A DNA stretch of 20,411 nt from Ignavibacteriales bacterium (GCA_037441705.1 JBBIRR010000059.1:1-20411); one strand, 5' to 3'. Shown: positions 6,788 through 20,411, counted from the stretch's first letter. The notes: a model not told the origin generated them from the sequence alone. Program-made: numbers and translations.

Positions 6788-6839
6788 CCCTTCGACTCCG
6801 TCCCGCTGAAAAGGGGCGGGACTGCGCTCAGCGTGACGG
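6788..6839 (-). repeat. Inverted CGTC-tagged repeat with an internal hairpin
   Basis: Minus strand ccgtcacgctgagcgca-GTCCCGC-cccttttca-GCGGGAC-ggagtcgaaggg. It faces copy 6617-6674. Confidence 0.75.
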
Positions 6840-7033
6840 CGCAGTTCGGACGTCACGGCTTATGCGCGCAAGCTTGTGCCGTGACGGAAGGGCGGGTGGC
6901 GCGAGCCTGCCGAGGCGCGAGTGACGATGTTCAATCGCAGATGCGGCGTTCGTTTCGGGTATCCCTTCTTCTTCTCAATTTGCGTATCTTGATTTCGGTT
7001 GGTTCGATCACTTTATTACCATCGAGATCAGAA

Positions 7034-8119
7034 ATGCAAATCGGTATTGTCGGGCTTCCGTTCTCCGGAAAATCAACACTCTTTCAAACAATCACCAAAA
7101 CGCATCTTGATCCGGCGGCCCTGACCAAGGCGGAAGCGCATCACGCTGTCGTTAAGGTGCCTGATCCGCGGCTGGACAAGCTGACGGAGATGTTTTCTCC
7201 CCAACGGACCGTGCATGCAACGATCGAGTTTGTTGATGTGGTGGGATTGAAGAAAGGTGAATCCGGCTCGACGCAATTCACAACGAACTTCCTTGCGAGT
7301 GTGAAGACGAACGATGCCCTCGTGCAGGTGGTGCGCCTGTTCCGCAATGACGCGGTTCCTCATCCCGACGGCTCGCTGGATGCCGAGCGAGACATCGCAA
7401 CGTTTGAAACGGAATTCATTCTCTCCGATCTCGGCGTCGTAGAAAACCGACTCGAGCGGCTCAAGAAGCAGGTGATGAAGGCCGGCGACGAACAGAGCAA
7501 ACGTGAGCTTCCTGTGCTGGAAAAATGCAAACAGGTGTTGGAAAGCGAGAAGCCGCTGCGCGAGCACGAGTTCTCCAAAGAGGAACTGCATCTCCTCAAA
7601 CCCTACCAGCTCCTCTCCATCAAGCCGATGTTGATTGCACTGAACCTCGACGAGACGCAACTGAACGACGCTTCGGCGATGGTGCAACGTATCGCAGCGA
7701 CGAAGGAAGGGAAAAACACCAAAATCATGGCGTTTTTCGGCAAGATCGAAATGGAGATGTCCGAGCTGAGCGACGATGAAGCGGAGGTGTTCATGGCCGA
7801 ATACGGCATTAAGGAGTCGGCACTCCATACGCTGATTCGCGAAGCGTATGCGTTGCTCGGCCTGCAGTCATTCTTCACCGTCGGCGAAGATGAATGCCGT
7901 GCGTGGACGATCAGGAAGGGAACGGTGGCGCAGGAAGCGGCGGGCGTGATTCATTCCGACTTTTTCCATAAGTTCATCCGCGCCGAGGTCGTTCATTTCG
8001 ATGACTTCATCGCTGCGGGCGGGTCGTTTGCAAAGGCGAAAGAAGCCGGTCACTGGCGGTTGGAAGGCAAGGAGTATGTCGTGAGAGATGGAGATATCGT
8101 GACGATCCGTCACGGTTGA
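7034..8119 (+). CDS. ychF: Redox-regulated ATPase YchF (Obg family)
   Basis: MQIGIVGLPFSGKSTLF, IEFVDVVGL, SFFTVGEDECRAWTI, AAGVIHSDF, FIRAEV and RLEGKEYVVRDGD. True start is ATG 7034. Confidence 0.96.
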   Translation: MQIGIVGLPFSGKSTLFQTITKTHLDPAALTKAEAHHAVVKVPDPRLDKLTEMFSPQRTVHATIEFVDVVGLKKGESGSTQFTTNFLASVKTNDALVQVVRLFRNDAVPHPDGSLDAERDIATFETEFILSDLGVVENRLERLKKQVMKAGDEQSKRELPVLEKCKQVLESEKPLREHEFSKEELHLLKPYQLLSIKPMLIALNLDETQLNDASAMVQRIAATKEGKNTKIMAFFGKIEMEMSELSDDEAEVFMAEYGIKESALHTLIREAYALLGLQSFFTVGEDECRAWTIRKGTVAQEAAGVIHSDFFHKFIRAEVVHFDDFIAAGGSFAKAKEAGHWRLEGKEYVVRDGDIVTIRHG

Positions 8120-8262
8120 GAGGCAGCAGCAAACGAGCGTAGACCGGTGAACGACGCGGAGAGGTGAAGATGGAGATGATCAGGGCGCTCGGCCGAGCGT
8201 GAGTAATCGCGGGGTGGCTCATCGTTGAGCACGCATTCTTTCATCATGCAAGGAAACCTCCC

Positions 8263-8910
8263 ATGAACATCGGCATTCTGGGGACAGGAGTGGTGGGCAC
8301 GACCATTGGCGCGAAGCTGATCCAGCTCGGCCATGCCGTGATGGTAGGCTCGCGATCGACACAGAACGAGAAAGCTGCTGCCTGGGCGAAAACGCATGGT
8401 GCTGCCGCATCGCACGGCACGTTTGCAGATGCCGCGGCGTTCGGCGAGATGGTGTTTCTTTGCACAAAAGGAGACGCGCTGCTCCATATTCTGGAGACGG
8501 TCGGCAGCAACCGCTTCGTGGGCAAGACCGTTGTTGATGTGACCAATCCCCTGGACTTTTCCAAAGGCGTGCCGCCCTCGCTGTTCATCTGTAACACGAA
8601 TTCCCTCGGCGAAGAAGTCCAAAAAACCCTGCCCGATTCGTTCGTTGTCAAGACCCTCAATATCGTCAACTGCGAAGTGATGGTGAATCCCGCCAAGTAC
8701 GCGCCCGATGGGACGATGTTCCTGTGCGGCAACGACATGGCGGCGAAAGAAAAAGTGCGGGCGCTGCTGACGAGTTTCGGCTGGCGCGACATCCTCGATC
8801 TCGGCGATATCAGCGGCGCACGCGGCATGGAAATGATGCTGCCTCTCTGGCTCCGCGCCTGGAGGGTGACGAAGGATGTCCACGTTGCCTTCAAGGCCAT
8901 TCGACACTGA
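8263..8910 (+). CDS. NAD(P)-binding oxidoreductase, F420-dependent NADP oxidoreductase family
   Basis: Rossmann motif IGILGTGVVG, VMVGSR, GKTVVDVTNPL, SLGEEVQ, VVKTLN, MFLCGND and DLGDISGARGME. Confidence 0.88.
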   Translation: MNIGILGTGVVGTTIGAKLIQLGHAVMVGSRSTQNEKAAAWAKTHGAAASHGTFADAAAFGEMVFLCTKGDALLHILETVGSNRFVGKTVVDVTNPLDFSKGVPPSLFICNTNSLGEEVQKTLPDSFVVKTLNIVNCEVMVNPAKYAPDGTMFLCGNDMAAKEKVRALLTSFGWRDILDLGDISGARGMEMMLPLWLRAWRVTKDVHVAFKAIRH

Positions 8911-9084
8911 GGCGAGCAATTTGTAGAGCCTTTCCACTCGCACATCTGAGCGACGATTGCTCCGCAGGTTCACTCGCCATGAGCTTGCAACTCTTCCTGC
9001 CTTTGTGCTAATTTGCACACGCGAACCGCGGCGCTGGTTCGCCGTGCGCACATCGTTCATTCACACACCGCGAATACCAAGGTC

Positions 9085-10494
9085 ATGAAGATTCGGCCGG
9101 ACGCTGCTGCGTGCCTTCTGTTTGCCGCTGCTCCGCTTTTGGTTTCTGGATGCAAGCGAGCGGCGGTAGACCCTCCGGCTATCGAGCTGCCGGAAGTGAA
9201 GACCGCCGTACTTTCGGTAAATCCCGACAACGTGTTGAGTGTGTTCTTCACGTGCAGGACAACCAATGCAGAATTCGTTTCGGTGGATGTGCTGCGCGAC
9301 TCCACGCTTCAATACTCGACCCCGACATTCATGGTTGCGTCGGACTCCGTTACGGTTCCTCTTGTGGGCTTGCGACCGCAGACGCAGTACACGCTTCGGA
9401 TGCAACTGACATCGTCTTCAGGAGGCGTCAGTCTTTACACCTCCACGCTCACGACGCAAGCACTCCCGCCGGAAATCACCCTTCCGTCATTTACGCTCGT
9501 TCGTTCCGACCTGCCGAGTGTGAAGTACGTGCTGCTCGGCATCACTCCGGCAAGCGGCGATAAATCCTATGCGGTCGTGATTGACCGCGATGCAGCGCCG
9601 GTGTGGTACAAGGAGTTTCGCGATGCCGTTGCGGATTTTCAGAAGCAGCCAAACGGGCGTTACACCGCATGGTCGTCGACCGACGGTAGTCCCTCCATCT
9701 TTCATGAGTTCGATGTGACAGGCAGAATCACCGGCAGGTATCGCGCATCCGGCAACCTCGAGACAGGCCCGCATGAGCTGCGGCTCGCGAACACGGGCTA
9801 TGTCCTGTTCGGCATCGAATTCCGTACGATGGATCTCACAGCGTACGGCGGACTTCCCAACGCATCTGTTCGCGGCATTACCGTCGAGTGGAGCCGCGGT
9901 ACGCAACCCTTCCGCTGGAGTACGTTCGATCACTTCAGCGTCGCCGATGCGGCACCGGACATTCCGCTCACGACAGCAACAGTCAATCCCTGGCATGGGA
10001 ACGCGATTGAAATCGACGCCGACGGTAATCTGCTTGTCTCGTTCCGCAACATGGATGAGATCACAAAGATCAACGCACAGACAGGCGCCATCATCTGGCG
10101 GATGGGAGGGCGGCGGAATGAGTTTACGTTCCGCGGCGATCCCCTGAACGGCTTCTCGCACCAGCACGGCGTGCGCCGTCTTCCTAACGGAAATATCATC
10201 CTGTTCGACAACGGCAATCTGCACGCTCCTCCACAGAGTCGCGCCGTGGAGTATCGAATCGATGAGACAAACAAAACAGCCGATCTGGTGTGGGAGTACC
10301 GCCCGTCGCCGCCGCTGTACGCGTTTGCGCTCGGGTTTGCGCAGAGGCTTGCCAACGGCAACACGCTCATTTGCTTCGGTACGGCGCAGCGGATCATCGA
10401 AGTCGATCCCGCCGGTCGCACCCGCTGGGAGGTCACCATCAACGACGCGCAGCGGTACGCATACAGAGCGTTCGCTCTGGAGACACTGTATTAA
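9085..10494 (+). CDS. Arylsulfotransferase (ASST)-family lipoprotein with N-terminal Ig/Fn3-like domain
   Basis: Lipobox LVSG-C, VGLRPQTQY, GPHEL, WHGNAI, LLVSFRNMD, IIWRMGG, FSHQHGVR, LFDNGN, SRAVEY and AQRLANGNTLI. Start taken at ATG 9085. Confidence 0.85.
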   Translation: MKIRPDAAACLLFAAAPLLVSGCKRAAVDPPAIELPEVKTAVLSVNPDNVLSVFFTCRTTNAEFVSVDVLRDSTLQYSTPTFMVASDSVTVPLVGLRPQTQYTLRMQLTSSSGGVSLYTSTLTTQALPPEITLPSFTLVRSDLPSVKYVLLGITPASGDKSYAVVIDRDAAPVWYKEFRDAVADFQKQPNGRYTAWSSTDGSPSIFHEFDVTGRITGRYRASGNLETGPHELRLANTGYVLFGIEFRTMDLTAYGGLPNASVRGITVEWSRGTQPFRWSTFDHFSVADAAPDIPLTTATVNPWHGNAIEIDADGNLLVSFRNMDEITKINAQTGAIIWRMGGRRNEFTFRGDPLNGFSHQHGVRRLPNGNIILFDNGNLHAPPQSRAVEYRIDETNKTADLVWEYRPSPPLYAFALGFAQRLANGNTLICFGTAQRIIEVDPAGRTRWEVTINDAQRYAYRAFALETLY

Positions 10495-11891: not shown

Positions 11892-13097
11892 TCAAGACTC
11901 TTCGGGCGCCCCGCCCAAAAGCTTCTCTGCGTCCTGTGATGGGAGTTGGTGTACGTCTCTGAGCCTTCGTTCGATTGCGCGCGAACGTCTCGACGCATCT
12001 TCGATGGTGTTGCTTGCTTCCTGCAGCTTCTTCTGTGTTTTATCGAGGATTTCACCGAAGCGGCCGAACTCGGTCTTGACCGCGCCGAGCAATGCCCACA
12101 CTTCGCTCGAGCGGCGTTCGATCGCCAGCGTCCGGAAGCCCATCTGCAGGCTGTTGAGGAACGCCGCTACGGTTGTGGGGCCGAGCACGGTGACGCGGAA
12201 CTCACGCTGCAGCGACTCGACGAGACCCGCGCGCCGCGTGACCTCGGCATACAGTCCTTCCGTCGGAAGAAAGAGGATGGCAAAATCCGTCGTGCGCGGC
12301 GGGTCAACATACTTCTCTTTGATGCGTCGCGCCTCCATTTTGATACGCGCTTCGAGGTTGCGTCCGGCTTCCTCCACCGCCTCCCGGTTCGCCTGCTCCG
12401 CGGCATCCACCAATCGATGATAGACGTCCATCGGAAACTTTGCGTCGAGAGGAAGCAACACGAACTCGCCGTCGCGTTCCTTTGACGGAATGCGAATGGC
12501 GAACTCGACGCGCTCGGTTCCTCCGGCCTTTGTCACAATGTTCCTGGCGTATTGTTCCGGGGTGAGAATCTGATCGAGCAGCGTCCCGAGCTGGATTTCT
12601 CCCCAGGTACCTCTCGTCTTCACATTCGTCAGCACCTTCTTCAGGTCGCCGACACCGGAAGCGAGCGTCTGCATGTCTCCCAATCCCTTATGAACAAGCT
12701 CGAGCCTCTCGCTCACAAGCTTGAACGATTCGCCCAATCGCCGTTCCAGCGTCGTGTGGAGCTTCTCATCCACCGTGGCGCGCATCTCTTCTAACTTCTT
12801 CTCATTCCGTTCCTGCAATTCTCGAAGTTTCTCCTCCACCGTTCTGCGCATCTGCTCCAGCGAATTGGTCAGCTCGGTGCGTTCCTGTCGTGCCTGAGCC
12901 CCCGTCTCCTCACGATTGCGGGCAAGTTCGTCCCGCAAAGCACGTTCAATCCGCTCCATGCTTTGCACCAGATGGTTCAACTCCGTCGGAAGCTGTGCGA
13001 GGGCGTCGGGGTGGCGACCTCTCAGCAACATCAACAGCAGGGCGCCGAGCAACACTGCCAGAATAATCGTGGATGCGATGAGAAGCGTTTCGGTCAT
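11892..13097 (-). CDS. rmuC: DNA recombination protein RmuC
   Basis: N-terminal membrane anchor and coiled coil, NVKTRGTWGEIQL, LPLDAKFP, TTDFAILFLPTEGLYAEV and NSLQMGFRTLAIERRSSEVW. Confidence 0.95.
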   Translation of the reverse strand: MTETLLIASTIILAVLLGALLLMLLRGRHPDALAQLPTELNHLVQSMERIERALRDELARNREETGAQARQERTELTNSLEQMRRTVEEKLRELQERNEKKLEEMRATVDEKLHTTLERRLGESFKLVSERLELVHKGLGDMQTLASGVGDLKKVLTNVKTRGTWGEIQLGTLLDQILTPEQYARNIVTKAGGTERVEFAIRIPSKERDGEFVLLPLDAKFPMDVYHRLVDAAEQANREAVEEAGRNLEARIKMEARRIKEKYVDPPRTTDFAILFLPTEGLYAEVTRRAGLVESLQREFRVTVLGPTTVAAFLNSLQMGFRTLAIERRSSEVWALLGAVKTEFGRFGEILDKTQKKLQEASNTIEDASRRSRAIERRLRDVHQLPSQDAEKLLGGAPEES

Positions 13098-13122
13098 ACC
13101 AAAACTTTCACCCGATCAGATC

Positions 13123-13158
13123 AAACAAAAAAGCCGACCCTGCACATGCGAATCGGCT
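13123..13158 (-). terminator. Intrinsic terminator after thioredoxin
   Basis: Minus strand AGCCGAT-tcgcatgtgcagg-GTCGGCT followed by TTTTTGTTT. Confidence 0.7.
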
Positions 13159-13242
13159 CCGGATTGATGACAGCCCGTCGTTGTCCGGGGACACGACGGA
13201 CCAGAAGAAGCCACTCCAAAATACGAGAACTTCTTCGAGCTG

Positions 13243-13611
13243 TCAATTCTTCGATATCGGTTCCGGCATCAGGACGGTGTTGATCGCTTCAACGAATGCT
13301 TCCTTCGGCATTGCGCCCATGGCCATTTGGGGCTTGCCCGTTTTCGGAATAAAGAGGATAGACGGGATGCTGCGAATCCCGAACACGGCTGCAAGCTCCT
13401 GCTCCTTGTCGGTGTCCACCTTGTACACGTTTATCTTGCCTGCATACTCTCGTGAAATATCTTCGAGAATCGGCGCGACCATCCGACAGGGCGCACACCA
13501 ATCGGCGTAGAAGTCGATGATTGCCGGAAGCTCACCGGCATACTTCCAGTCTTTGTTCTTTTCGTAATCAAAGATCTTTGTGAGAAATGTTTCTTTTGTC
13601 AGGTGCTCCAT
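13243..13611 (-). CDS. trxA: Thioredoxin
   Basis: MEHLTKETF...FDYEKNKDWKY...IIDFYADWCAPCRMVAP...FGIRSIPSILFIP. Start at ATG 13611 with AAAGGA SD. Active site WCAPC. Confidence 0.93.
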   Translation of the reverse strand: MEHLTKETFLTKIFDYEKNKDWKYAGELPAIIDFYADWCAPCRMVAPILEDISREYAGKINVYKVDTDKEQELAAVFGIRSIPSILFIPKTGKPQMAMGAMPKEAFVEAINTVLMPEPISKN

Positions 13612-13720
13612 ACTACATCCTTTCATGGGTTTGGGTGAAGTTTTGTCCACCCGTTAGATGCACCCACGTGAGCAAAAGGGTCAGTGAGTATGAAGGGGTT
13701 CAATCACCTGCGAGCGACAC

Positions 13721-13753
13721 GAGGGCAGCGTATTGCGTGTGCACGCTGCCCTC
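13721..13753. other. Perfect 11-bp stem-loop downstream of the PUR-like gene (possible terminator or RNA stabiliser)
   Basis: GAGGGCAGCGT-attgcgtgtgc-ACGCTGCCCTC. No clear U-tract on the minus strand. Confidence 0.5.
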
Positions 13754-13771
13754 TTCGCCGGACAGTGGGGA

Positions 13772-13999
13772 TCAGGCTTTTGCCGCTTCGGCCGCTTCTT
13801 CGACCGCCTTGCGGAATTGTTCGATCGTGTCGCCGAAAAATCGAACGGTCGAGCGCTTCTTCTCCTCGCCTTGCATGCTGTTCTCGGAGATCGAAAGATA
13901 CTTGTTGCCGTTCTTCGCCTCCTTCACGTCCACGAAGTACGTTGTCTTGCCCGACTTCAGCATGGTCGAGTAGAGCGAGTTCGTGTTTGCCTGCGTCAT
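13772..13999 (-). CDS. DUF3276 / PUR-repeat single-stranded nucleic-acid-binding protein
   Basis: LYSTMLKSGKTTYFVDVKEAKNGNKYLSISE...RSTVRFF...IEQFRKAV matches the PUR-repeat pattern. AGGAGG SD. Confidence 0.85.
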   Translation of the reverse strand: MTQANTNSLYSTMLKSGKTTYFVDVKEAKNGNKYLSISENSMQGEEKKRSTVRFFGDTIEQFRKAVEEAAEAAKA

Positions 14000-14043
14000 G
14001 ATGACCTCCTGTGGTTTGTGTGAGTTGTTGTTTGAAACCCCCT

Positions 14044-14073
14044 CTACCTATATAAACGAAATCAGGTAACAGC
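14044..14073 (-). promoter_or_regulatory. 30-bp conserved motif, copy upstream of the PUR-like gene (putative ECF promoter or operator)
   Basis: GCTGTTACCTGATTTCGTTTATATAGGTAG, 28/30 identical to 15813-15842. It overlaps the last codons of the peptidase gene. Confidence 0.7.
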
Positions 14074-14553
14074 CCCAGGCTTATGCTGGGAAAGCAGGCG
14101 GATTTTGAGAGCCATTGCTTCTTCGCTGACATCGAACAGGCGAGAAAGCGGGCCGGTGTGCTTGATCGTGGGCAGAAAAGACAGAAGCGTTTCGGTGGGT
14201 ATGAGAAGCTCCGAGGCGAATGCATCGGCCTCCCGGTTCAGCAGGGCGATACGCGCAGCACTGCAGGCGCGTTCCGGGGGGTGCTTCAGGACGACGTGGC
14301 CAATCTCGTGTGCCAGTGTGAAGCGCTGCCGGTGACGATGCTGGCGGCCGTTGATGCCGATGAGGCGGTGCACCGGACTGACAATGCCGGCGAACTCCAC
14401 CGCCACATCATAGAGACGCACGACGCGAAATCCCATCGCTTCCGCAATCCGCTCGATATTAACTGGAGGAGATGTATAGGCGCTGGCGCGCAGCAGTTCC
14501 AGCGCAGCGTGTCTACTCCGCTCGAACGTATCTGTCGAACGGTCCCGTACCAT
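14062..14553 (-). CDS. ImmA/IrrE-family Zn metallopeptidase (Peptidase M78)
   Basis: PPVNIERIAEAMG, IGING...RQRFTLAHEIGH (HExxH), READAFASELLIP and LFDVSEEAM. Start is ATG 14553 (TGATG overlap) or GTG 14556. Confidence 0.92.
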   Translation of the reverse strand: MVRDRSTDTFERSRHAALELLRASAYTSPPVNIERIAEAMGFRVVRLYDVAVEFAGIVSPVHRLIGINGRQHRHRQRFTLAHEIGHVVLKHPPERACSAARIALLNREADAFASELLIPTETLLSFLPTIKHTGPLSRLFDVSEEAMALKIRLLSQHKPGAVT

Positions 14554-15143
14554 CACTCACGCGACGATTGGAGGGTTGATAAGAGGTCGTTCAGCTTTTT
14601 CTCGTCCGAGGGCGGAAGAGGAAGATCGGCTCGGGTGTACAACTCGCGATACGCTTTCTCGAGAGCGAGCTTCTTCTTTCCACGTTTCTTTCCTTTGTAT
14701 CGGGCCAGCATGCCTCCCAATGCCGGCCGATATGCTACCAGGCGGCACGTTCTGCGGATGGTATCGGCAATCTCTTCGAAAGACATGTTGAGAAGCACCA
14801 TCAGCTTCTGCCACGCCGCGGCCGGGATTTTCAGCGGCGAGATGGCATCCTGCTCCATGAGTGTGTAGATGTTTTTCGTGACGCCGATGCGCGCGAAGAT
14901 CTCTTGCGGCTGCAATCCGCGGCTCCGCACGGATTTCAACAGGGCGCCAACGGTGAGCGGCATCGCTTTCTGCCCGCGTGCGAGAGCGCCTTCGAGACGC
15001 TCGATGAGGAAAGCCCGTTCTTGCGGCTGCACCTGAAGCCGCAGCGTTCGCCGCGCCACAGCCTTCTCGTACGCCCCGCGCGTGTGCACCAATCCTTCCA
15101 GCCAGGCAAGTCGAAGGAGTGCGTCAATGTTCTCGTTCTTCAT
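14553..15143 (-). CDS. Uncharacterised protein with a central XRE/Cro-like HTH, encoded in the anti-sigma position
   Basis: LTVGALLKSVRSRGLQPQEIFARIGVTKNIYTLMEQD resembles an XRE HTH, followed by a basic patch KGKKRGKKK. Overlaps the sigma gene by 20 nt and the peptidase start. Confidence 0.7.
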   Translation of the reverse strand: MKNENIDALLRLAWLEGLVHTRGAYEKAVARRTLRLQVQPQERAFLIERLEGALARGQKAMPLTVGALLKSVRSRGLQPQEIFARIGVTKNIYTLMEQDAISPLKIPAAAWQKLMVLLNMSFEEIADTIRRTCRLVAYRPALGGMLARYKGKKRGKKKLALEKAYRELYTRADLPLPPSDEKKLNDLLSTLQSSRE

Positions 15144-15804
15144 GCTGTGTCAGTTCCGGATAGTATTCTGCAAGGATGTTCACAAATTTCTTTCTCACCC
15201 GGGCGTGATAGACCTTCAGGTGTGAAACCGGCTTACCGGTGTACGAAGCGATTTCTTCGTAGGGGACGTCGAGCGCACGGCAGCGCAGCAACACACGCTC
15301 CCACGCCTCGAGCCGCTCCAGCGCGTCGGCGATTGCGGCAAGCTTGCCGACAGCACGGGTCGACTCTTCGTCCGCGTCGGAACCATCCGCGCTTTCCGGC
15401 TCCACGAGCGCATCCCGGTACTGTTGAAGGACGATGCGCGTCAGCTCACGGTCCGGCATCTCTGAGTCATCCTCTCGCTCCGTCACGATGTCGTCGTCGA
15501 AGCCGACCATACGCCCCCGGCGGGCCTGCAGCCGAACATGGTCCCGCACCTTATTTCGAAAGACCGTCATAACCCAGGCATGGAAATCTCCCTCGCCCCG
15601 CTGAAACGTGAACCCGTGGATTCCTTCCACCACCGCGAGCAGGACGTCGCTCACCACCTCCTCCGCGTCGTCCCTTCGAAGCGAGAATACCGACACGGCC
15701 TCACGAAGCAATACGCCCTGATAGCGATCGACCAGATGAGCACACGCCTCTCGTTTCCCCTCTTTCAGGTGCTGGACGAGCGCTTTCGGAGAGAGAGTCG
15801 GCAC
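15124..15804 (-). CDS. ECF-type RNA polymerase sigma-70 factor
   Basis: Region 2: DAEEVVSDVLLAVV...DFHAWVMTVFRNKVRDHVR. Acidic linker. Region 4: ALERLEAWERVLL...VPYEEIASYTGKPVSHLKVYHARVRKK. GTG start with GGAAGGG SD. Confidence 0.9.
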   Translation of the reverse strand: MPTLSPKALVQHLKEGKREACAHLVDRYQGVLLREAVSVFSLRRDDAEEVVSDVLLAVVEGIHGFTFQRGEGDFHAWVMTVFRNKVRDHVRLQARRGRMVGFDDDIVTEREDDSEMPDRELTRIVLQQYRDALVEPESADGSDADEESTRAVGKLAAIADALERLEAWERVLLRCRALDVPYEEIASYTGKPVSHLKVYHARVRKKFVNILAEYYPELTQHEEREH

Positions 15805-15812
15805 ATCCCTTC

Positions 15813-15842
15813 CTATCTATATAAACGAAAACAGGTAACAGC
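15813..15842 (-). promoter_or_regulatory. 30-bp conserved motif, copy upstream of the sigma gene (putative autoregulated promoter or operator)
   Basis: GCTGTTACCTGTTTTCGTTTATATAGATAG, ending 8 nt before the GTG start. Confidence 0.7.
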
Positions 15843-15900
15843 GTTGGCAGCGAAAGTCCCCGTCGTGCCGGTGGTCGCCGTTTTCAGACTCAGACCGAAG

Positions 15901-16062
15901 GACTAACGGTTCCTGTGCTATGAAAATGCTGTACGCCGGCTGGTGCAGTGGGTGTTGCGGAAATCGGTTTCAGGCTGAGAGCGACTTCGGCAAGGAACGA
16001 GTCCCGGCGTCTCACCGGCAGGGCGAGTGCCTACCTGCTTTCAATGTCGGTTCTGGCATGTG
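15901..16062 (-). mobile_element. Degenerate attC-like site downstream of the restriction gene
   Basis: Minus strand starts CACATGC-CAGAACCGACATTGAAAG (17/18 identical to 18121-18138) and ends ttttcatagcacaggaacc-GTTAGTC. The R'' box lacks AAC. Confidence 0.4.
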
Positions 16063-16095
16063 AAGTGTCGGCACCTGAAAGTTGAGTTGAACACT

Positions 16096-16836
16096 TCAGT
16101 TCGATTTAATGTTGCCACTGTTGAACCGCACCAATTCGTTCCAGTCAATTCTCCCGTCACGGCAGAACTGGTTTGAGAAGTCAGCCGTGAACTTGTTTAT
16201 CACAACAGCAAGCTCCTCTTCGTATCGCTGGTTGCGTTGCTTCGCTTGATGGCCCAGTGGTTCGATGATGTCCGTATAGAGATTCTTATTGCCACTGATA
16301 AAGTACCAGAACTCTTGCCCGCATATGCGAAGGTACTCGCCGGTGTCCACTGTTTTTCTTTTGCCGTAACAAGATGCTAACACAGGCTGTACCGCCTTGA
16401 CCGATTTCGATTGTTTGAGTACCTGGACTGCTTTCTTGAATCGATCTCTGAGGGCTGCATATTGCGAGCTATTGCCCCAGTTCACGCCAGACTTGATTGA
16501 AACGAGGTACACGACGCCGTCTTTCGAGAACTCCAAATCAATACCAGGTCCCGGTGATTTCTTACCATTGAGTGTTTTGCTGGGAATGAAGATGGCAAGC
16601 TCTTCAAGAAAGTTCCCGAAGAGCTCTTCCTCAGAGGAAGAAAGATACGCTTGCAGGAGAGACTCGATGAGCTTCTGTGCCGTGAGGATGTTCTTTGCCT
16701 TGAAGAGGTATGGATTCTTCTTCTGCAGGACTTCTCTCAGCTTGATCTTCTTGACTCTGTTGATTCGGCTTTCGTGAAACTCGCCAATGTGCTGATTGAC
16801 AAATTCTGTAACTTCTTCCAAGGATATGGATTTCAC
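16096..16836 (-). CDS. Type II restriction endonuclease, EcoO109I/PmeII-like PD-(D/E)xK family
   Basis: KKNPYLFKAKN, SSSEEELFGNFLEELAIF, GIDLEF...VSIKSGVNWGNSSQ and CGQEFWYFISG. GTGA overlap with the methyltransferase gene. Confidence 0.82.
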   Translation of the reverse strand: MKSISLEEVTEFVNQHIGEFHESRINRVKKIKLREVLQKKNPYLFKAKNILTAQKLIESLLQAYLSSSEEELFGNFLEELAIFIPSKTLNGKKSPGPGIDLEFSKDGVVYLVSIKSGVNWGNSSQYAALRDRFKKAVQVLKQSKSVKAVQPVLASCYGKRKTVDTGEYLRICGQEFWYFISGNKNLYTDIIEPLGHQAKQRNQRYEEELAVVINKFTADFSNQFCRDGRIDWNELVRFNSGNIKSN

Positions 16837-17789
16837 TCGAATAATTCTCCGTTCTGAGGTGGCTCGTGTTTGACTCGCTTCTCAGCTTGAGCACAAAAGT
16901 CCTTCAGAAGCTCAATGCCAATGTATCTGCGCCCTAGATGCTTTGCTGCCACAGCCGCCGTGCCAGAGCCCAGGAATGGATCGAGTACAACATCACCGGG
17001 TTTTGTGAATAGCTTGATGAACCATTTAGGAAGGGCCACGGGAAAAGCTGCACTGTGATTCTTGTTTCCGGACTCAGTCGCCAAGTGGAGAACGTTGTCC
17101 GGGTAGGCCATCTTTCGTCCCAACCAATTGGAGATGTTCTTTCCGAAGCCGCTGCCCACCTTTGATTCATCTCTTCGCTTGTCAGTGTCGCTCAGGTTTC
17201 TTAATCGAGTTTTGGCCCAATCGCCCATTGGGACCATTACGCTCTCTTGATACATCGAGAATTTCCGTTGTTTGTTGAATTGAAGACAGTGTTCCCAAGC
17301 ATCTCTGAACCTGTTCGGCCACTTACCCGGGTAAGTGTTCCGCTTGTGCCATATGTACTCCTCAGTCCAGAGCCATCCTTGCTTTCTCATTTCAAGGATC
17401 AACTCCAAAACGTATGTCTGCCGTTCACCGTTAGACACGCCCTCCTTAATGTTGAGTATGAATGTGCCGGACGGCTTTAGGACCCGTTTGAGTTCAAGAG
17501 CTATTGGCAAAAACCATTGAACATATCGGTCGGGATGGATACCACCATATGAATTCTTGCGTTTGTCTGCATAAGGCGGTGATGTCACAATCAGGTCAAC
17601 AAACTCATCGGGGAAGGTGCGAAGAACTTCAAGAGCATCTCCGCAAATGATCGAGTCCAGTGGAAGTTGCTTCTGTGTTGAGGAAACACTGACGACATAA
17701 AGTCCCTCTTGCTCCCGAACCTTGGACTTGACAAAGCTGAATTTCTTGCCAGCTAGGTTGATTCCCTTCATATTTCCGATCTTGTGCAT
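16833..17789 (-). CDS. Beta-class amino DNA methyltransferase (probably N4-cytosine)
   Basis: IICGDALEVL, DLIVTSPPY (motif IV) preceding HSAAFP and VVLDPFLGSGT (motif I), then YIGIEL. Start is uncertain (17789, 17771 or later). Confidence 0.93.
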   Translation of the reverse strand: MHKIGNMKGINLAGKKFSFVKSKVREQEGLYVVSVSSTQKQLPLDSIICGDALEVLRTFPDEFVDLIVTSPPYADKRKNSYGGIHPDRYVQWFLPIALELKRVLKPSGTFILNIKEGVSNGERQTYVLELILEMRKQGWLWTEEYIWHKRNTYPGKWPNRFRDAWEHCLQFNKQRKFSMYQESVMVPMGDWAKTRLRNLSDTDKRRDESKVGSGFGKNISNWLGRKMAYPDNVLHLATESGNKNHSAAFPVALPKWFIKLFTKPGDVVLDPFLGSGTAAVAAKHLGRRYIGIELLKDFCAQAEKRVKHEPPQNGELFE

Positions 17790-17856
17790 AATTCGATAGC
17801 TAAACTACCGAAAGATAAGGAAACGTCAGTGGACATTCCAATGTGTGCCGCCATTT

Positions 17857-18145
17857 CACATAACGATTTCTATGTTACGATTGAAGGAACAAAGCCGGCG
17901 GGTCGTCAGACTTCGACGGACTCTGTCGAGGTGTCCCACACTGAGATCGGTGCTCCAGTGATCTGGATATCGTTGCTTCGAGGCGACATGTCCTGATGCC
18001 CGGGGACCAGACACTGCAAAGATAATCATCAACGAGGAGGTTTTCCCTTTTCAGCTTCTACCGTGCGCTGGCAAGCTCGGCAAACCCGTCAACCTTTTGC
18101 CGAGCGTGCGCAAGCTCTGACTTTCAATATCGGTTCTGTTATACG
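17857..18145 (-). mobile_element. Long attC-like structured site between the DUF262 gene and the methyltransferase gene
   Basis: Minus strand CGTATAAC-agaac-cgatattgaa ... ttcaatcg-taacatagaaatc-GTTATGTG. Begins 18 nt after the DUF262 stop. Internal hairpins include the perfect GCTCGGCAAA/TTTGCCGAGC (18075-18105). Confidence 0.5.
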
Positions 18146-18163
18146 CCGTGCAGCCGAAAGAAA

Positions 18164-19792
18164 TCATCTTCCGAGCAGCAAAACTACGCGTTCCAAAATA
18201 CGTTGTCGGCGGTTCGTAACGAATGTCTCGAAACCATCTGGCTTCAGTTCATCTTTCTCGATCAGGTAGTCAGTAGCTAGTTCTTCTGCAGGGACACCCT
18301 CGAAGTACTCCCAAGGTTCATCATCACTCTTTCGGATGTTACGTAGCTTTCCCAGGAAGGCAAGATTGCCAATATCGTTTACGAGATGTGGATGTGTGTG
18401 AACGTATTTTGACCGTGGGAATATGTGGTCAACTTCAGCTCGTTCTTGCCACGACAGAGTTTCTCTACGGATTTTGGGCTGGACGAGATTGAGCGCTAAA
18501 GCTGTCTTTGCATTGAGCATGTCGAGGGATGAAGAAACGTAGTGCCAAGTCTGCCGCTGTTCTATAACGCGCAAGAGTGCATCTAGGGGTAGTGCACGAC
18601 CGTTGTATGGTCTTAACTTTTCACGAAGATAACGGATCCTTGCTTCTGGTCGGCGCAAGAATTCGTTGAAGAGTAGGAAGTAAATAAACGTGCGAAGCGG
18701 TCTTCGCTGGTCGTCTGGGATCGAGTGGTTATGTTGATGGTAGACGTAATAGATGATAGGAAAGAGTGTAGCCACTGGATTCAGGAGAGACGCAGAGAGA
18801 ATGCCAACGTCAGGACTTCGGACGAAATCAATAGTATTTCGCATACTGCGGGCGAAACCATCAAAGACTTGCTCTATGACGGCCCAGTGGCGTTTTATGT
18901 TGTCAACTTCGTACTTCGGGGGAGCATCGGCAACAGTCAACAGCCCGCGGATGATGAAATCCTTGTCAATTCCGAGCGGGCTGTGGCGTTCGATGTCGGC
19001 TACAAGTTGGTCGAAACTAACTCTTGCAGATGACCAATGTCGTTTTATGATGGAAAACATCAGATCCGATCGGCTGAGTCGAGTGCCGCCAGTGTTGACT
19101 CTTACAAAAATATCGAGCACTTCGTCTATGGTTCTCGCAGCGGCTTCGTTGGGGGCATCATGATCGATGTATTCTACTGGTACTAAGTCTGATTGCTGCA
19201 TAACCGCGCGAAGTCGTCGCATATTAGCGGCGGCGGTTGTTGCCTCAGTATCTTGAAGGGGAATTTGACTAATAATGCGTGCAATCTCTTGTTCTTCGAT
19301 TCGTAGTGACCAGCTAACTATCTCGGATACGAGAATGTGGCGACGTGGTCGGTTCGAATCATCGGGTTTCCAGAAGTAGAAGCGGAATGCACCCGACTCG
19401 CCGTCCTCATCTTCCGAAACTGCCGCCGACCCGCTTGTTACATCGAAGTAGAGCCGCCTGCCTTCGTGTGAGCCGTAAGTGCCGATCAAGAAAGATTGGA
19501 GACGTTGTTGTCCATCGAGTACCATTTCAAGGGGTTTGCCTTTGTCTTTAGTCTTCACGACGAATGTTTGCCCGGGCTGGTGGTCAACTACGAAATCGCG
19601 ATAAGCGACATCTAAGTAACGGGTTTCCCAGATGAGCAGTGAACCGAATGGATACCCTCTCATCAAAGAATCAAAGAGAAGTCGAATCTGGTCGCGATCC
19701 CAGACGAAGTCGCGTTGGATGTCTGGGAGAACGAGCGTGTGATCATTGTGAATTCTGTTGAGAAGGTGCATTATGGAAGTGGACTGGGCCAT
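18164..19792 (-). CDS. DUF262 (ParB/Srx) + C-terminal HNH (DUF1524-like) protein, GmrSD-type restriction family
   Basis: LVLPDIQRDFVW, GYPFGSLLIW, VLDGQQRL and IFVRVNTGGTRLS, with C-terminal VDHIFP...NDIGNLAFLGKLRNIRKSD. Start set at ATG 19792 because the longer ORF start lies inside the attC-like site. Confidence 0.9.
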   Translation of the reverse strand: MAQSTSIMHLLNRIHNDHTLVLPDIQRDFVWDRDQIRLLFDSLMRGYPFGSLLIWETRYLDVAYRDFVVDHQPGQTFVVKTKDKGKPLEMVLDGQQRLQSFLIGTYGSHEGRRLYFDVTSGSAAVSEDEDGESGAFRFYFWKPDDSNRPRRHILVSEIVSWSLRIEEQEIARIISQIPLQDTEATTAAANMRRLRAVMQQSDLVPVEYIDHDAPNEAAARTIDEVLDIFVRVNTGGTRLSRSDLMFSIIKRHWSSARVSFDQLVADIERHSPLGIDKDFIIRGLLTVADAPPKYEVDNIKRHWAVIEQVFDGFARSMRNTIDFVRSPDVGILSASLLNPVATLFPIIYYVYHQHNHSIPDDQRRPLRTFIYFLLFNEFLRRPEARIRYLREKLRPYNGRALPLDALLRVIEQRQTWHYVSSSLDMLNAKTALALNLVQPKIRRETLSWQERAEVDHIFPRSKYVHTHPHLVNDIGNLAFLGKLRNIRKSDDEPWEYFEGVPAEELATDYLIEKDELKPDGFETFVTNRRQRILERVVLLLGR

Positions 19793-19838
19793 ATGATGCT
19801 CTCGTTGCAGGTTATGATTCGTTGGTTCGGCTGCATGG

Positions 19839-19970
19839 CGCATAACGTATTGAGTGCTCACGCAGCGTCAGCGCATGGAGTCCACCGCAGGCGGACGCAA
19901 TAAGCTGACGTTGAGCGACATCTATCAAAAGCTATAACTGATGGAGCGCCGTGAACACGAGTGTTATGCG
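19839..19970 (-). mobile_element. Integron attC-like recombination site (132 bp)
   Basis: Minus strand CGCATAAC-actc-GTGTTCACG ... CGTGAGCAC-tcaatac-GTTATGCG: perfect 8-bp R''/R' boxes, unpaired asymmetric spacers, 9-bp L boxes with one G-T pair, and an inner stem 19863-19872/19904-19913. Confidence 0.72.
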
Positions 19971-20296
19971 TCGTGGGCGAAGGGAACACTGCCGTTCCAT
20001 CAGAAACAGAAATCTCCACTACCTCGCTTTCTCCTCTCAAGACACAAGAATGTTCGGAGCGAGTTCGTCTCCACGGTAGCCCGCTCCTCGTTCTGTTCTG
20101 CTACAAAAAAATGGGAACCTCTTTGCTCATTTCTGCGTTCAGCAAACCGTGCGTCGTCGCTTGCGAGTCTGTCCGCGAAACCTCTTCCGCAACTCGTCGT
20201 TTCTTCCAGGACAGACTCTCAGCTCCTTCACGCTTTGCTCAACTCTCCAAACTCTCATGCCTCCCCCTTTTTTCTATAACCCACAAACCTCGCTCC

Positions 20297-20317
20297 CGTG
20301 TAGCCGAAGGCTACACG
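20297..20317. other. Perfect 9-bp hairpin with GAA triloop
   Basis: CGTGTAGCC-GAA-GGCTACACG. Confidence 0.5.
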
Positions 20318-20411
20318 ACGTTCTTGTTCTCTTCAGAAACGTCGCTGCTCACCCGAGCCCATGACGCCATAACTCCTCCAACTACGCAACTACTACTGCG
20401 TCTATTATCCC

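Follow-up and report, generated by a model that had tools for sequence, protein, structure and literature searches.

A restriction-gene cluster of an Ignavibacteriales bacterium resembles a short, decayed integron-type cassette array

Are the restriction genes in a 20,411-nt stretch of DNA from an Ignavibacteriales bacterium (GCA_037441705.1 JBBIRR010000059.1:1-20411; hereafter the window, in whose coordinates all positions are given) cassettes of an integron, or ordinary members of a defence island? A preliminary description of the window had placed a restriction-modification (R-M) pair and a GmrSD-like (DUF262) gene in an array of integron-like cassettes with three attC-like sites. Our reading, which we consider probable, is that the DNA between about 15900 and a point past 20374 forms a short integron-type cassette array that has decayed, has no integrase within reach and occupies a conserved position in the chromosome of this bacterium of the Bacteroidota/Fibrobacteres-Chlorobi-Bacteroidetes (FCB) group. 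The units are indeed discrete, co-oriented and foreign in composition, they are bounded by heptamers, and their cargo differs in a related genome, but two of the three sites had been misread.

Read on the minus strand, the region consists of three head-to-tail units: a hairpin element lacking an open reading frame (ORF), termed unit 0, then the GmrSD-like gene, and finally a methyltransferase gene together with a restriction endonuclease gene. All are bounded by heptamers of the forms GTTATGY and RYATAAC, and the sites that follow the three units are numbered 1 to 3 (Table 1). On the plus strand the boundary pairs alternate, 16055 (a decayed GGCAT) with 17864, 18138 with 19846, and 19963 with 20373. 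The heptamers extend into inverted repeats that are specific for each unit, with 19/21 nt paired around the GmrSD gene, 16/20 around the R-M pair and, as aligned by eye with one gap, about 15/17 between the two ends of unit 0 (19963-19979 and 20355-20373). Every flanking repeat has GTTA at its start and TAAC, or a decayed form of it, at its end. The R boxes pair over 7/7 positions in site 1 (GCATAAC/GTTATGC); site 2 has GTATAAC/GTTATGT and site 3 the decayed ACATGCC/GTTAGTC. GCATAAC is one position off the RYYYAAC consensus, yet it forms the R'' box of the real arr-3 and VIM-4 attCs. A Xer/dif-type nature of the sites was considered and rejected, as no XerD arm or spacer is readable at any of them; the arm part GCGCATAA resembles what we take to be the XerC arm of dif.

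We compared the window with a related locus. One scan of a sequence collection with the pattern of an 18-mer found in sites 2 and 3 returned four loci (L001-L004), the window's own genome not being among them. Three of these, single matches in unrelated phyla, were attributed to chance, there being hardly any similarity outside the pattern, and with only four loci found the 18-mer was dropped as a candidate genome-wide repeat or attC box. The remaining locus, L001, is syntenic with the window. Its source is a metagenome-assembled genome labelled uncultured Bacteroidetes bacterium, and the plus strand of L001 is the equivalent of the window's minus strand. Both loci contain the hairpin element, stretches matching sites 2 and 3, and a module of genes for a sigma factor, an unknown protein, an M78 peptidase and a DUF3276 protein, which are 67-88% identical. 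The cargo between these common flanks differs: the place of the GmrSD and R-M genes is taken by an outer membrane protein (OMP)-like gene (L001 7458-8084) with a perfect 13-nt repeat on either side (GTTAGGCGGTCTC) and by an OLD/AriA/GajA-like ATPase gene disrupted by frameshifts, and about 6 kb of other genes lie between the ATPase and the sigma factor. In this one comparator, homology stops at the GCATAAC closing unit 0 and restarts at the inverse core and the insertion sequence (IS) remnant described below. The counterpart in L001 of the decayed ACATGCC is ACATAAC.

To compare the inverted repeats of these units with those of other genes, we gave each gene unit the score of the best inverted repeat linking its upstream 100 nt with its downstream 70 nt. 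The sample comprised 80 units of the window and L001-L004, plus the GmrSD unit taken with its true start codon (81 in all). The GmrSD unit (score 15), the OMP gene of L001 (13) and the R-M pair (11) occupy ranks 1-3, followed by scores of 10, 9 and 9; the ATPase unit of L001 scores 7. Fifteen canonical class 1 cassettes gave scores of 5-11 (VIM-4 11; aadA5 and dfrA1 10), and real cassettes do show a few extra paired bases past the heptamer. On its own the 16/20 repeat of the R-M unit is at chance level, with about 10 such pairs in 7.4 kb, and we give it weight because of its position.

Evidence for an integron-type recombination site comes from covariance models. As control data we used plasmid R46 and nine other class 1 integron regions, in which 16 cassette genes were examined and attC ends could be placed by folding for nine. 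Since MAFFT misplaced the 3' arms of cmlA5 and dfrA1, these two were left out of the alignment, and the first model (R1) was built from the other seven, with an R box, an L box and one additional base at position 16. In the ten loci 20 attCs reached E ≤ 1 with R1, among them the non-seed sites of cmlA5 (46 bits) and gcuD (36 bits), and a second model (R2) was rebuilt from these 20 sites. Both were run with filters off on the 89 kb formed by the window and L001-L004. The sole strong match is L001 8093-8255 on the gene strand (R1, 19.7 bits, E 0.0076; R2, 23.7 bits, E 0.00088). It starts 9 nt past the OMP stop with GCCTAAC, which pairs with GTTAGGC at the start of that unit, and continues with a spacer of 5 nt, three base pairs, an additional base at position 16 and then six more base pairs; the two spacers measure 5 and 8 nt. 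Its bottom strand folds at -34.0 kcal/mol (z-score -4.47, 0/200 shuffles). Its 3' arm has one bulged T and one bulged G, separated by 6 bp, and two bulged bases at this distance are the attC arrangement given in PMC5027507. Judged by model match and predicted fold, L001 8093-8255 is a canonical attC, and it lies between two cargo genes. A shorter candidate, L001 8093-8189, did not fold and was discarded; the model set the end at 8255. The ATPase gene beyond this site (L001 8181-9974) is split over three frames (8181-8471, 8468-8902 and 8874-9974). Its likely true start is the ATG at 8284, 28 nt past the attC, and it thus has the appearance of a decaying defence cassette.

In both sites 2 and 3 the preliminary description had noted the 18-mer CAGAACCGAYATTGAAAG beside the R'' box. 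The repeat is real: it occurs twice in the window, on the minus strand at 16038-16055 and 18121-18138, against a chance expectation of 0.01, and a search allowing three mismatches gave two matches in 0/100 shuffles. Sequence comparison identifies it, however, as the left end of an IS110-family element and not as an attC L box. The interior of site 2 is 76.5% identical over 136 nt to L001 10001-10134, directly upstream of a truncated IS110 transposase gene, and site 3, which also aligns with site 2, is 86.5% identical over 37 nt to L001 9994-10030. About 210 nt of non-coding DNA separate the 18-mer of L001 from the transposase ORF downstream. The first 40 residues encoded there (L001 10217-10336) are 97.5% identical to 376-aa IS110 transposases carrying PF01548 and PF02371, and the gene stops after residue 42. 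A protein search with this truncated transposase placed 49 of 50 candidates at E ≤ 0.001, and NCBIfam NF033542 (IS110 family) matches it at E 0.0032; the 42-aa peptide found nothing in Pfam even at E ≤ 10 and nothing by tblastn against plasmids. No transposase remnant was found by tblastn in the window, which holds two copies of the non-coding part only.

Sites 2 and 3 are therefore at best attCs broken by that element. The heptamers which the preliminary description had seen after the DUF262 and restriction endonuclease genes, like the 18-mer, are in place to within 1-2 nt, the inverse core lying 19 nt past the GmrSD stop in site 2 (whose far end is GTTATGT at 17864-17858) and, as the decayed ACATGCC, 34 nt past the endonuclease stop in site 3, but neither site forms a hairpin and both contain IS110 remnants. 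In all three copies the non-coding end of the IS abuts an inverse core, ATAAC or ATGCC followed by AGAACCGA, 0-5 nt after the AAC. Two sites struck by an IS110-family element and then eroded would explain their length, their unfolded state and their common 18-mer. Such a target has precedent, since several members of the IS1111 family target one end of attC sites, and a long non-coding region upstream of the transposase gene characterizes the IS110 type, both according to PMC11187229. Among our control regions, the class 1 integron of plasmid pGZAF1_VIM contains an element whose gene is annotated as IS110 family transposase (L007 279-1322), inserted in the smr attC 5 nt after the AAC and so at a position equivalent to that of the remnants; subterminal inverted repeats are visible at both of its ends. 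The 3' end of the thioredoxin gene of the window (13246-13265) also has a match of about 17/21 to the IS left-end motif, which lies outside the three-mismatch search and is probably due to chance.

Site 1 is the only site of the window that still resembles an attC in outline. According to PMC5027507, an attC is an imperfect hairpin in which the L box follows an unpaired central spacer of 5-6 nt in each arm. Site 1, bounded by GCATAAC (19840-19846) and GTTATGC (19963-19969) 46 nt upstream of the in-frame ATG of the GmrSD gene at 19792, folds into a 7-8-bp R box, asymmetric spacers of 7 and 4 nt, and an L stem of nine positions with one mismatch, at -24.7 (plus strand) and -23.0 kcal/mol (minus strand). 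The strand antisense to the genes thus folds better by 1.7 kcal/mol, compared with 5.0 for L001 7249-7407 and 2.5 for L001 8093-8255; the mean advantage of attC bottom strands is 2.12 kcal/mol according to PMC5027507. A shape detector requiring an R box and a nine-position L stem, which found none of the real attCs in R46 and serves as a chance control only, matched site 1 alone in the window (shuffle mean 0.15). At the place of site 1, L001 has a hairpin (7250-7396; z-scores -3.1 and -4.3) that likewise shows an R box and a long L stem and reached 8.4 bits when searched alone with our models. No interior homology was detected between these two sites (z-score 1.6, 33/500 shuffles). Between both genomes the site after unit 0 has thus kept its structure and not its sequence, and it has no bulged bases. 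The published length range of 57-141 bp accommodates site 1 (130 nt); site 2 measures 287-289 nt, site 3 about 160 nt and the attC of L001 163 nt. We considered a reversed orientation of the array, as the interior of site 1 is unconserved while unit 0 is conserved, and dropped it because unconstrained sequence would be unalignable at this divergence and the canonical attC lies on the gene strand.

Unit 0 contains no credible ORF (19963-20374). As DNA it folds with z-scores of -4.69 (plus) and -5.72 (minus), and 0/100 shuffles were as stable. It is kept in L001 as a 468-nt element (6789-7256), with 73.5% identity over 166 nt. Of the 83 consensus pairs of the two elements, 12 are changed on both sides, and the terminal stem, CGTC/GACG in one and CGAA/TTCG in the other, differs by two adjacent pairs each changed on both sides. 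Unit 0 is possibly a structured RNA or a regulatory cassette; a search of 13000-20411 gave no Rfam match at E ≤ 10. The arms of unit 0 appear better conserved than the neighbouring genes. Just upstream of the element, L001 6718-6777 contains a 15-nt direct repeat, CTAAACGCAATGCGT, in two copies ~45 nt apart, which might conceivably bind a protein in an attI-like region; a related small hairpin remains in the last 37 nt of the window. From the synteny with L001, about 0.7 kb without coding sequence and, after it, an operon for a CsgG / DUF4810 / GNA1162-like lipoprotein would be expected past 20411.

Each unit begins with the TTRRRY of a core heptamer and closes at an inverse-core heptamer, with which its own recombination site opens. 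The integrase of a working integron folds the bottom strand of such a site, cuts inside AAC, excises the unit as a circle and re-inserts it. We infer that an integrase once moved these units and that the sites of the window were once canonical; past excision and re-insertion would explain the presence of other cargo between common flanks in the relative. The system in the window is probably frozen, as the sites after the GmrSD and R-M units carry the IS110-family remnant and the remaining hairpin lacks the bulges read by an integrase. The genes would now act as an ordinary static defence island.

Several results weigh against a cassette array. The canonical attC belongs to the relative and not to the window: R1 and R2 match 0/3 window sites at E ≤ 10, the attC count by our own models being zero for the window and one for L001. 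The best window matches (10266-10329 and 18627-18734) are intragenic and include several non-standard pairs, and site 1 searched alone yields partial matches of at most 6.9 bits. A model match at 19839-19970, the lack of which the preliminary description had named in advance as the first of three refuting conditions, was not found at E ≤ 10 with these home-made class 1 models, whose E-values are rough and of which R1 also missed at least one site picked as attC in the controls (dfrA1, L012 4943-5037). The well-formed attC reported there retains its heptamers, its position and its 46-nt spacing, but its fold has a z-score of only -1.8, equally good folds arising in 11 and 7 of 200 shuffles, its spacers are 4 and 7 nt long instead of 5-6, and a 1x1 mismatch stands where a bulged base is expected. 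The extrahelical bases of the R''-L'' arm of an attC bottom strand, a G (position 16) and, 6 bp away, a T (position 23/24), are present at no window site and occur only in L001 8093-8255. The shape detector also matches four times in 48.6 kb of unrelated control DNA. Sites 2, taken as a 289-nt hairpin (z-scores -0.82 and -1.29), and 3 (z-score -0.19, 81/200 shuffles) are unstructured. The 13-21-nt repeats with scores of 15 and 13 exceed the range of the 15 canonical cassettes and are not predicted by integron mechanics. No tyrosine recombinase was found with Pfam among the 22 window and 27 L001 ORFs scanned, the best tblastn match to IntI1 had E 0.33, and the non-coding DNA upstream of unit 0 gave no signal of a decayed integrase. 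Neither an integrase nor a remnant of one is thus present in the window or in the 20 kb of L001. Finally, the right-hand end of the variable region, at about 15850, does not coincide with a heptamer, and the comparison involves one genome only.

Several of these results would also fit an ordinary defence-island hot spot, in which cargo was swapped between conserved flanks by homologous recombination after transfer, and in which the heptamers and repeats serve transcript-end pairing or termination or are due to chance. The missing integrase, the lack of attC-model matches in the window, the right-hand boundary, the four hairpins of site 1 shape in unrelated DNA and the chance-level R-M repeat all speak for it. 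Such a hot spot does not account for L001, in which a canonical attC complete with its two bulged bases falls exactly between a pair of cargo genes, nor for three cargo units ranking 1-3 of 81 for flanking inverted repeats that all read GTTA...TAAC or a decayed form of it, nor for an IS of a family known to target attC ends that sits at an inverse core three times. We regard it as a serious but rather unlikely alternative. The neighbouring case of an island at a tRNA gene was rejected, as the window contains no tRNA or tmRNA.

With inverted repeats of 13-21 nt at either end, the units could also be mobile insertion cassettes, non-autonomous transposons with terminal repeats starting GTTATG that are moved by a DDE transposase encoded elsewhere, with unit 0, short, ORF-less and formed of a long hairpin, as a miniature inverted-repeat transposable element (MITE). 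Both the term and the concept are found in the part of the literature consulted. We consider this improbable, as none of the five units whose flanks were read has a target-site duplication, and the repeats differ between units past the first 6-13 nt, so that no single transposase would suit them all. Unit 0 occupies one and the same locus in the two genomes, which have diverged, and carries compensatory changes, unlike a recent insertion, and the canonical attC in L001 would be left unexplained. Invertible modules, in which a distant recombinase would flip the genes between inverted repeats as a shufflon-like on/off switch of defence, are hardly credible: sites of alternating orientation do flank each gene-bearing segment, and global invertases acting on distant sites exist, but the units of both genomes all point one way, there is no recombinase within reach, the repeats pair imperfectly (16/20) and have nothing but the heptamer in common, and neither the cargo replacement nor the canonical attC would be explained.

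Within the preferred reading of a decayed integron-type array, the long repeats allow for a more speculative proposal, which we put forward tentatively and would not ourselves bet on. This lineage would have a variant of the integron cassette in which the 7-bp R box is extended to a unit-specific stem of 13-21 bp, with arms changing together, the array being headed by a conserved hairpin element of 410-470 nt that lacks an ORF. Formation of the long stem would be confined to a transcript or to the excised circle in its single-stranded form. The stem could hold together the base of sites that are long and fold poorly, or label the units for some recombinase that is not a classical IntI, and the hairpin element could, as structured RNA or DNA, regulate or prime the array.

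Table 1. Coordinates of the units, sites, repeat arms, genes and promoter-like motif discussed in the text (window positions unless L001 is given).
Feature	Position	Strand	Description
Unit 0, cassette-like, ORF-less, 412 nt	19963..20374	-	Starts GTTATGG (20373 downwards), ends GCATAAC (19969-19963)
Site 1, 130-nt hairpin, non-canonical attC-like	19840..19969	-	R box, 4-/7-nt spacers, L stem, branched tip
GmrSD unit, 5' arm GTTATGCGCCATGCAGCCGAA, R' heptamer included	19826..19846	-	19/21 complementary to 18138-18158
GmrSD/DUF262-family gene, 542 aa	18164..19792	-	Pfam GmrSD_N 3.3e-28; PADLOC HEC-05 2.9e-79, nearly full length
GmrSD unit, 3' arm	18138..18158	-	Ends in inverse-core heptamer GTATAAC (18144-18138)
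Site 2 interior	17865..18138	-	IS110-family 5' non-coding remnant, clear 18138-18019, fainter to about 17906, then ~40-50 nt of other sequence
R-M unit, 5' arm GTTATGTGAAATGGCGGCAC, R' heptamer of site 2 included	17845..17864	-	16/20 complementary to 16055-16074
N6/N4 DNA methyltransferase, 318 aa	16833..17789	-	Pfam N6_N4_Mtase 1.3e-44; PADLOC MTase_II 2.8e-53
Type II restriction endonuclease, EcoO109I/PmeII family, 246 aa	16096..16836	-	Pfam RE_EcoO109I 1.2e-75
R-M unit, 3' arm	16055..16074	-	Ends in decayed inverse core ACATGCC (16061-16055)
Site 3	15900..16055	-	Shorter IS110 left-end remnant (18-mer 16055-16038 and ~20 nt), then decayed sequence to GTTAGTC (15906-15900)
Gene list	13243-19792	-	Thioredoxin, DUF3276 protein, M78 peptidase, 196-aa unknown, ECF-like sigma, restriction endonuclease, methyltransferase, GmrSD/DUF262
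Motif TGTTACCTNWTTTCGTT	14052-14071, 15821-15840; L001 16544-16563, 18555-18574	- (window)	

The gene content of the region agrees with the preliminary description, which had found the genes co-oriented and more AT-rich than their flanks. The minus strand carries every gene of 13243-19792, and eight 500-nt windows (16001-20000) have a GC content of 0.47-0.51, compared with 0.52-0.61 in the other 32. The GmrSD/DUF262 protein is a candidate type IV restriction enzyme, and judged by its profile matches it fits the candidate-defence family HEC-05 better than classical GmrSD. Its N-terminal DUF262 match is strong, and the GmrSD_C nuclease domain matches at E 0.0072, under the Pfam cut-off. The restriction endonuclease is 41-46% identical to the products of plasmid genes annotated as PmeII family restriction endonucleases, each of which adjoins a methyltransferase gene. 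Among plasmid genes homologous to GmrSD (383 records, none reaching 60% identity) or to the endonuclease (13 records), no integron context was found. Downstream of the thioredoxin gene we noted an intrinsic-terminator-like hairpin (13127-13158, minus strand; AGCCGA ... TCGGCT followed by a T run), which has a chance match of 16/20 to one arm of the R-M repeat.

Beside the variable region, both genomes contain a four-gene module (13772-15804 in the window, minus strand) encoding an extracytoplasmic function (ECF)-like sigma factor, a 196-aa unknown protein, an M78 peptidase with a CapP match (2.5e-21), and a DUF3276/PurA-like protein. The suggestion that this module might be the terminal unit of the array did not hold up: its GC content is host-like, it is conserved beside different cargo in L001, and it is a conserved flank, not a cassette. 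A promoter-like motif, TGTTACCTNWTTTCGTT, occurs exactly twice per genome, upstream of the sigma factor and DUF3276 genes, has no match in shuffled sequence and precedes no defence gene. From this distribution it looks like a small regulon of the sigma factor's own. We presume that the module may be a protease-controlled sigma/anti-sigma switch of the DNA-damage-sensing kind.

If the array is what we take it to be, integron-type storage of anti-phage genes would extend to an FCB lineage in which integrons are barely documented, and the locus would offer a worked example of the death of an array, with the integrase lost and IS110-type elements striking the recombination sites. The unit-specific stems extending the R box and the conserved hairpin element could bear on how cassettes and their sites arise and fold; on present evidence they are curiosities and not discoveries.

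We compared the locus to known systems with similar features. In pdif modules, genes are bounded by inverted XerC/D sites of alternating orientation, whereas no XerD-type arm and no 6-nt spacer lie beside any window site. Like mobile insertion cassettes and MITEs, as far as the consulted literature describes them, the units carry passenger genes or none between terminal inverted repeats, with no transposase inside; they differ in having no target-site duplications, unit-specific repeats and integron-type heptamer termini. The IS remnants resemble the attC-end IS1111-family elements in the part of PMC11187229 considered, in that the inverse-core AAC is followed within a few bases by an element with a DEDD transposase, in one fixed orientation, but the long non-coding region upstream of the transposase gene is of the IS110 type; because only left-end remnants survive, the right junction and exact target are unreadable. 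Type II and IV restriction systems are prevalent in integron cassettes (bioRxiv 10.1101/2024.07.02.601686, in part), and integrons occur in Chlorobi, Ignavibacteriae and Salinibacter (PMC9024848, in part), so that the kind of element described here is already known. The anti-phage cassettes of sedentary chromosomal and mobile integrons in bioRxiv 10.1101/2024.07.02.601686 come from arrays next to IntI or from large clusters of attCs, for the most part in Vibrio and further Gammaproteobacteria, whereas our locus has three units, no integrase and broken sites. The closest relation is to attC clusters without an integron integrase (CALINs), which by the IntegronFinder definition, as given in part of PMC9024848, need at least two attC sites and no integrase. 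The locus differs from a CALIN in that no window site passes an attC covariance model, the heptamers are extended to unit-specific repeats of 13-21 nt, and the host belongs to the FCB group, where integrons are rare. It shares with a CALIN the co-oriented cassettes, the bounds of GTTRRRY/RYYYAAC type, a cargo that varies between relatives, one canonical attC in the relative, and the absence of an integrase nearby.

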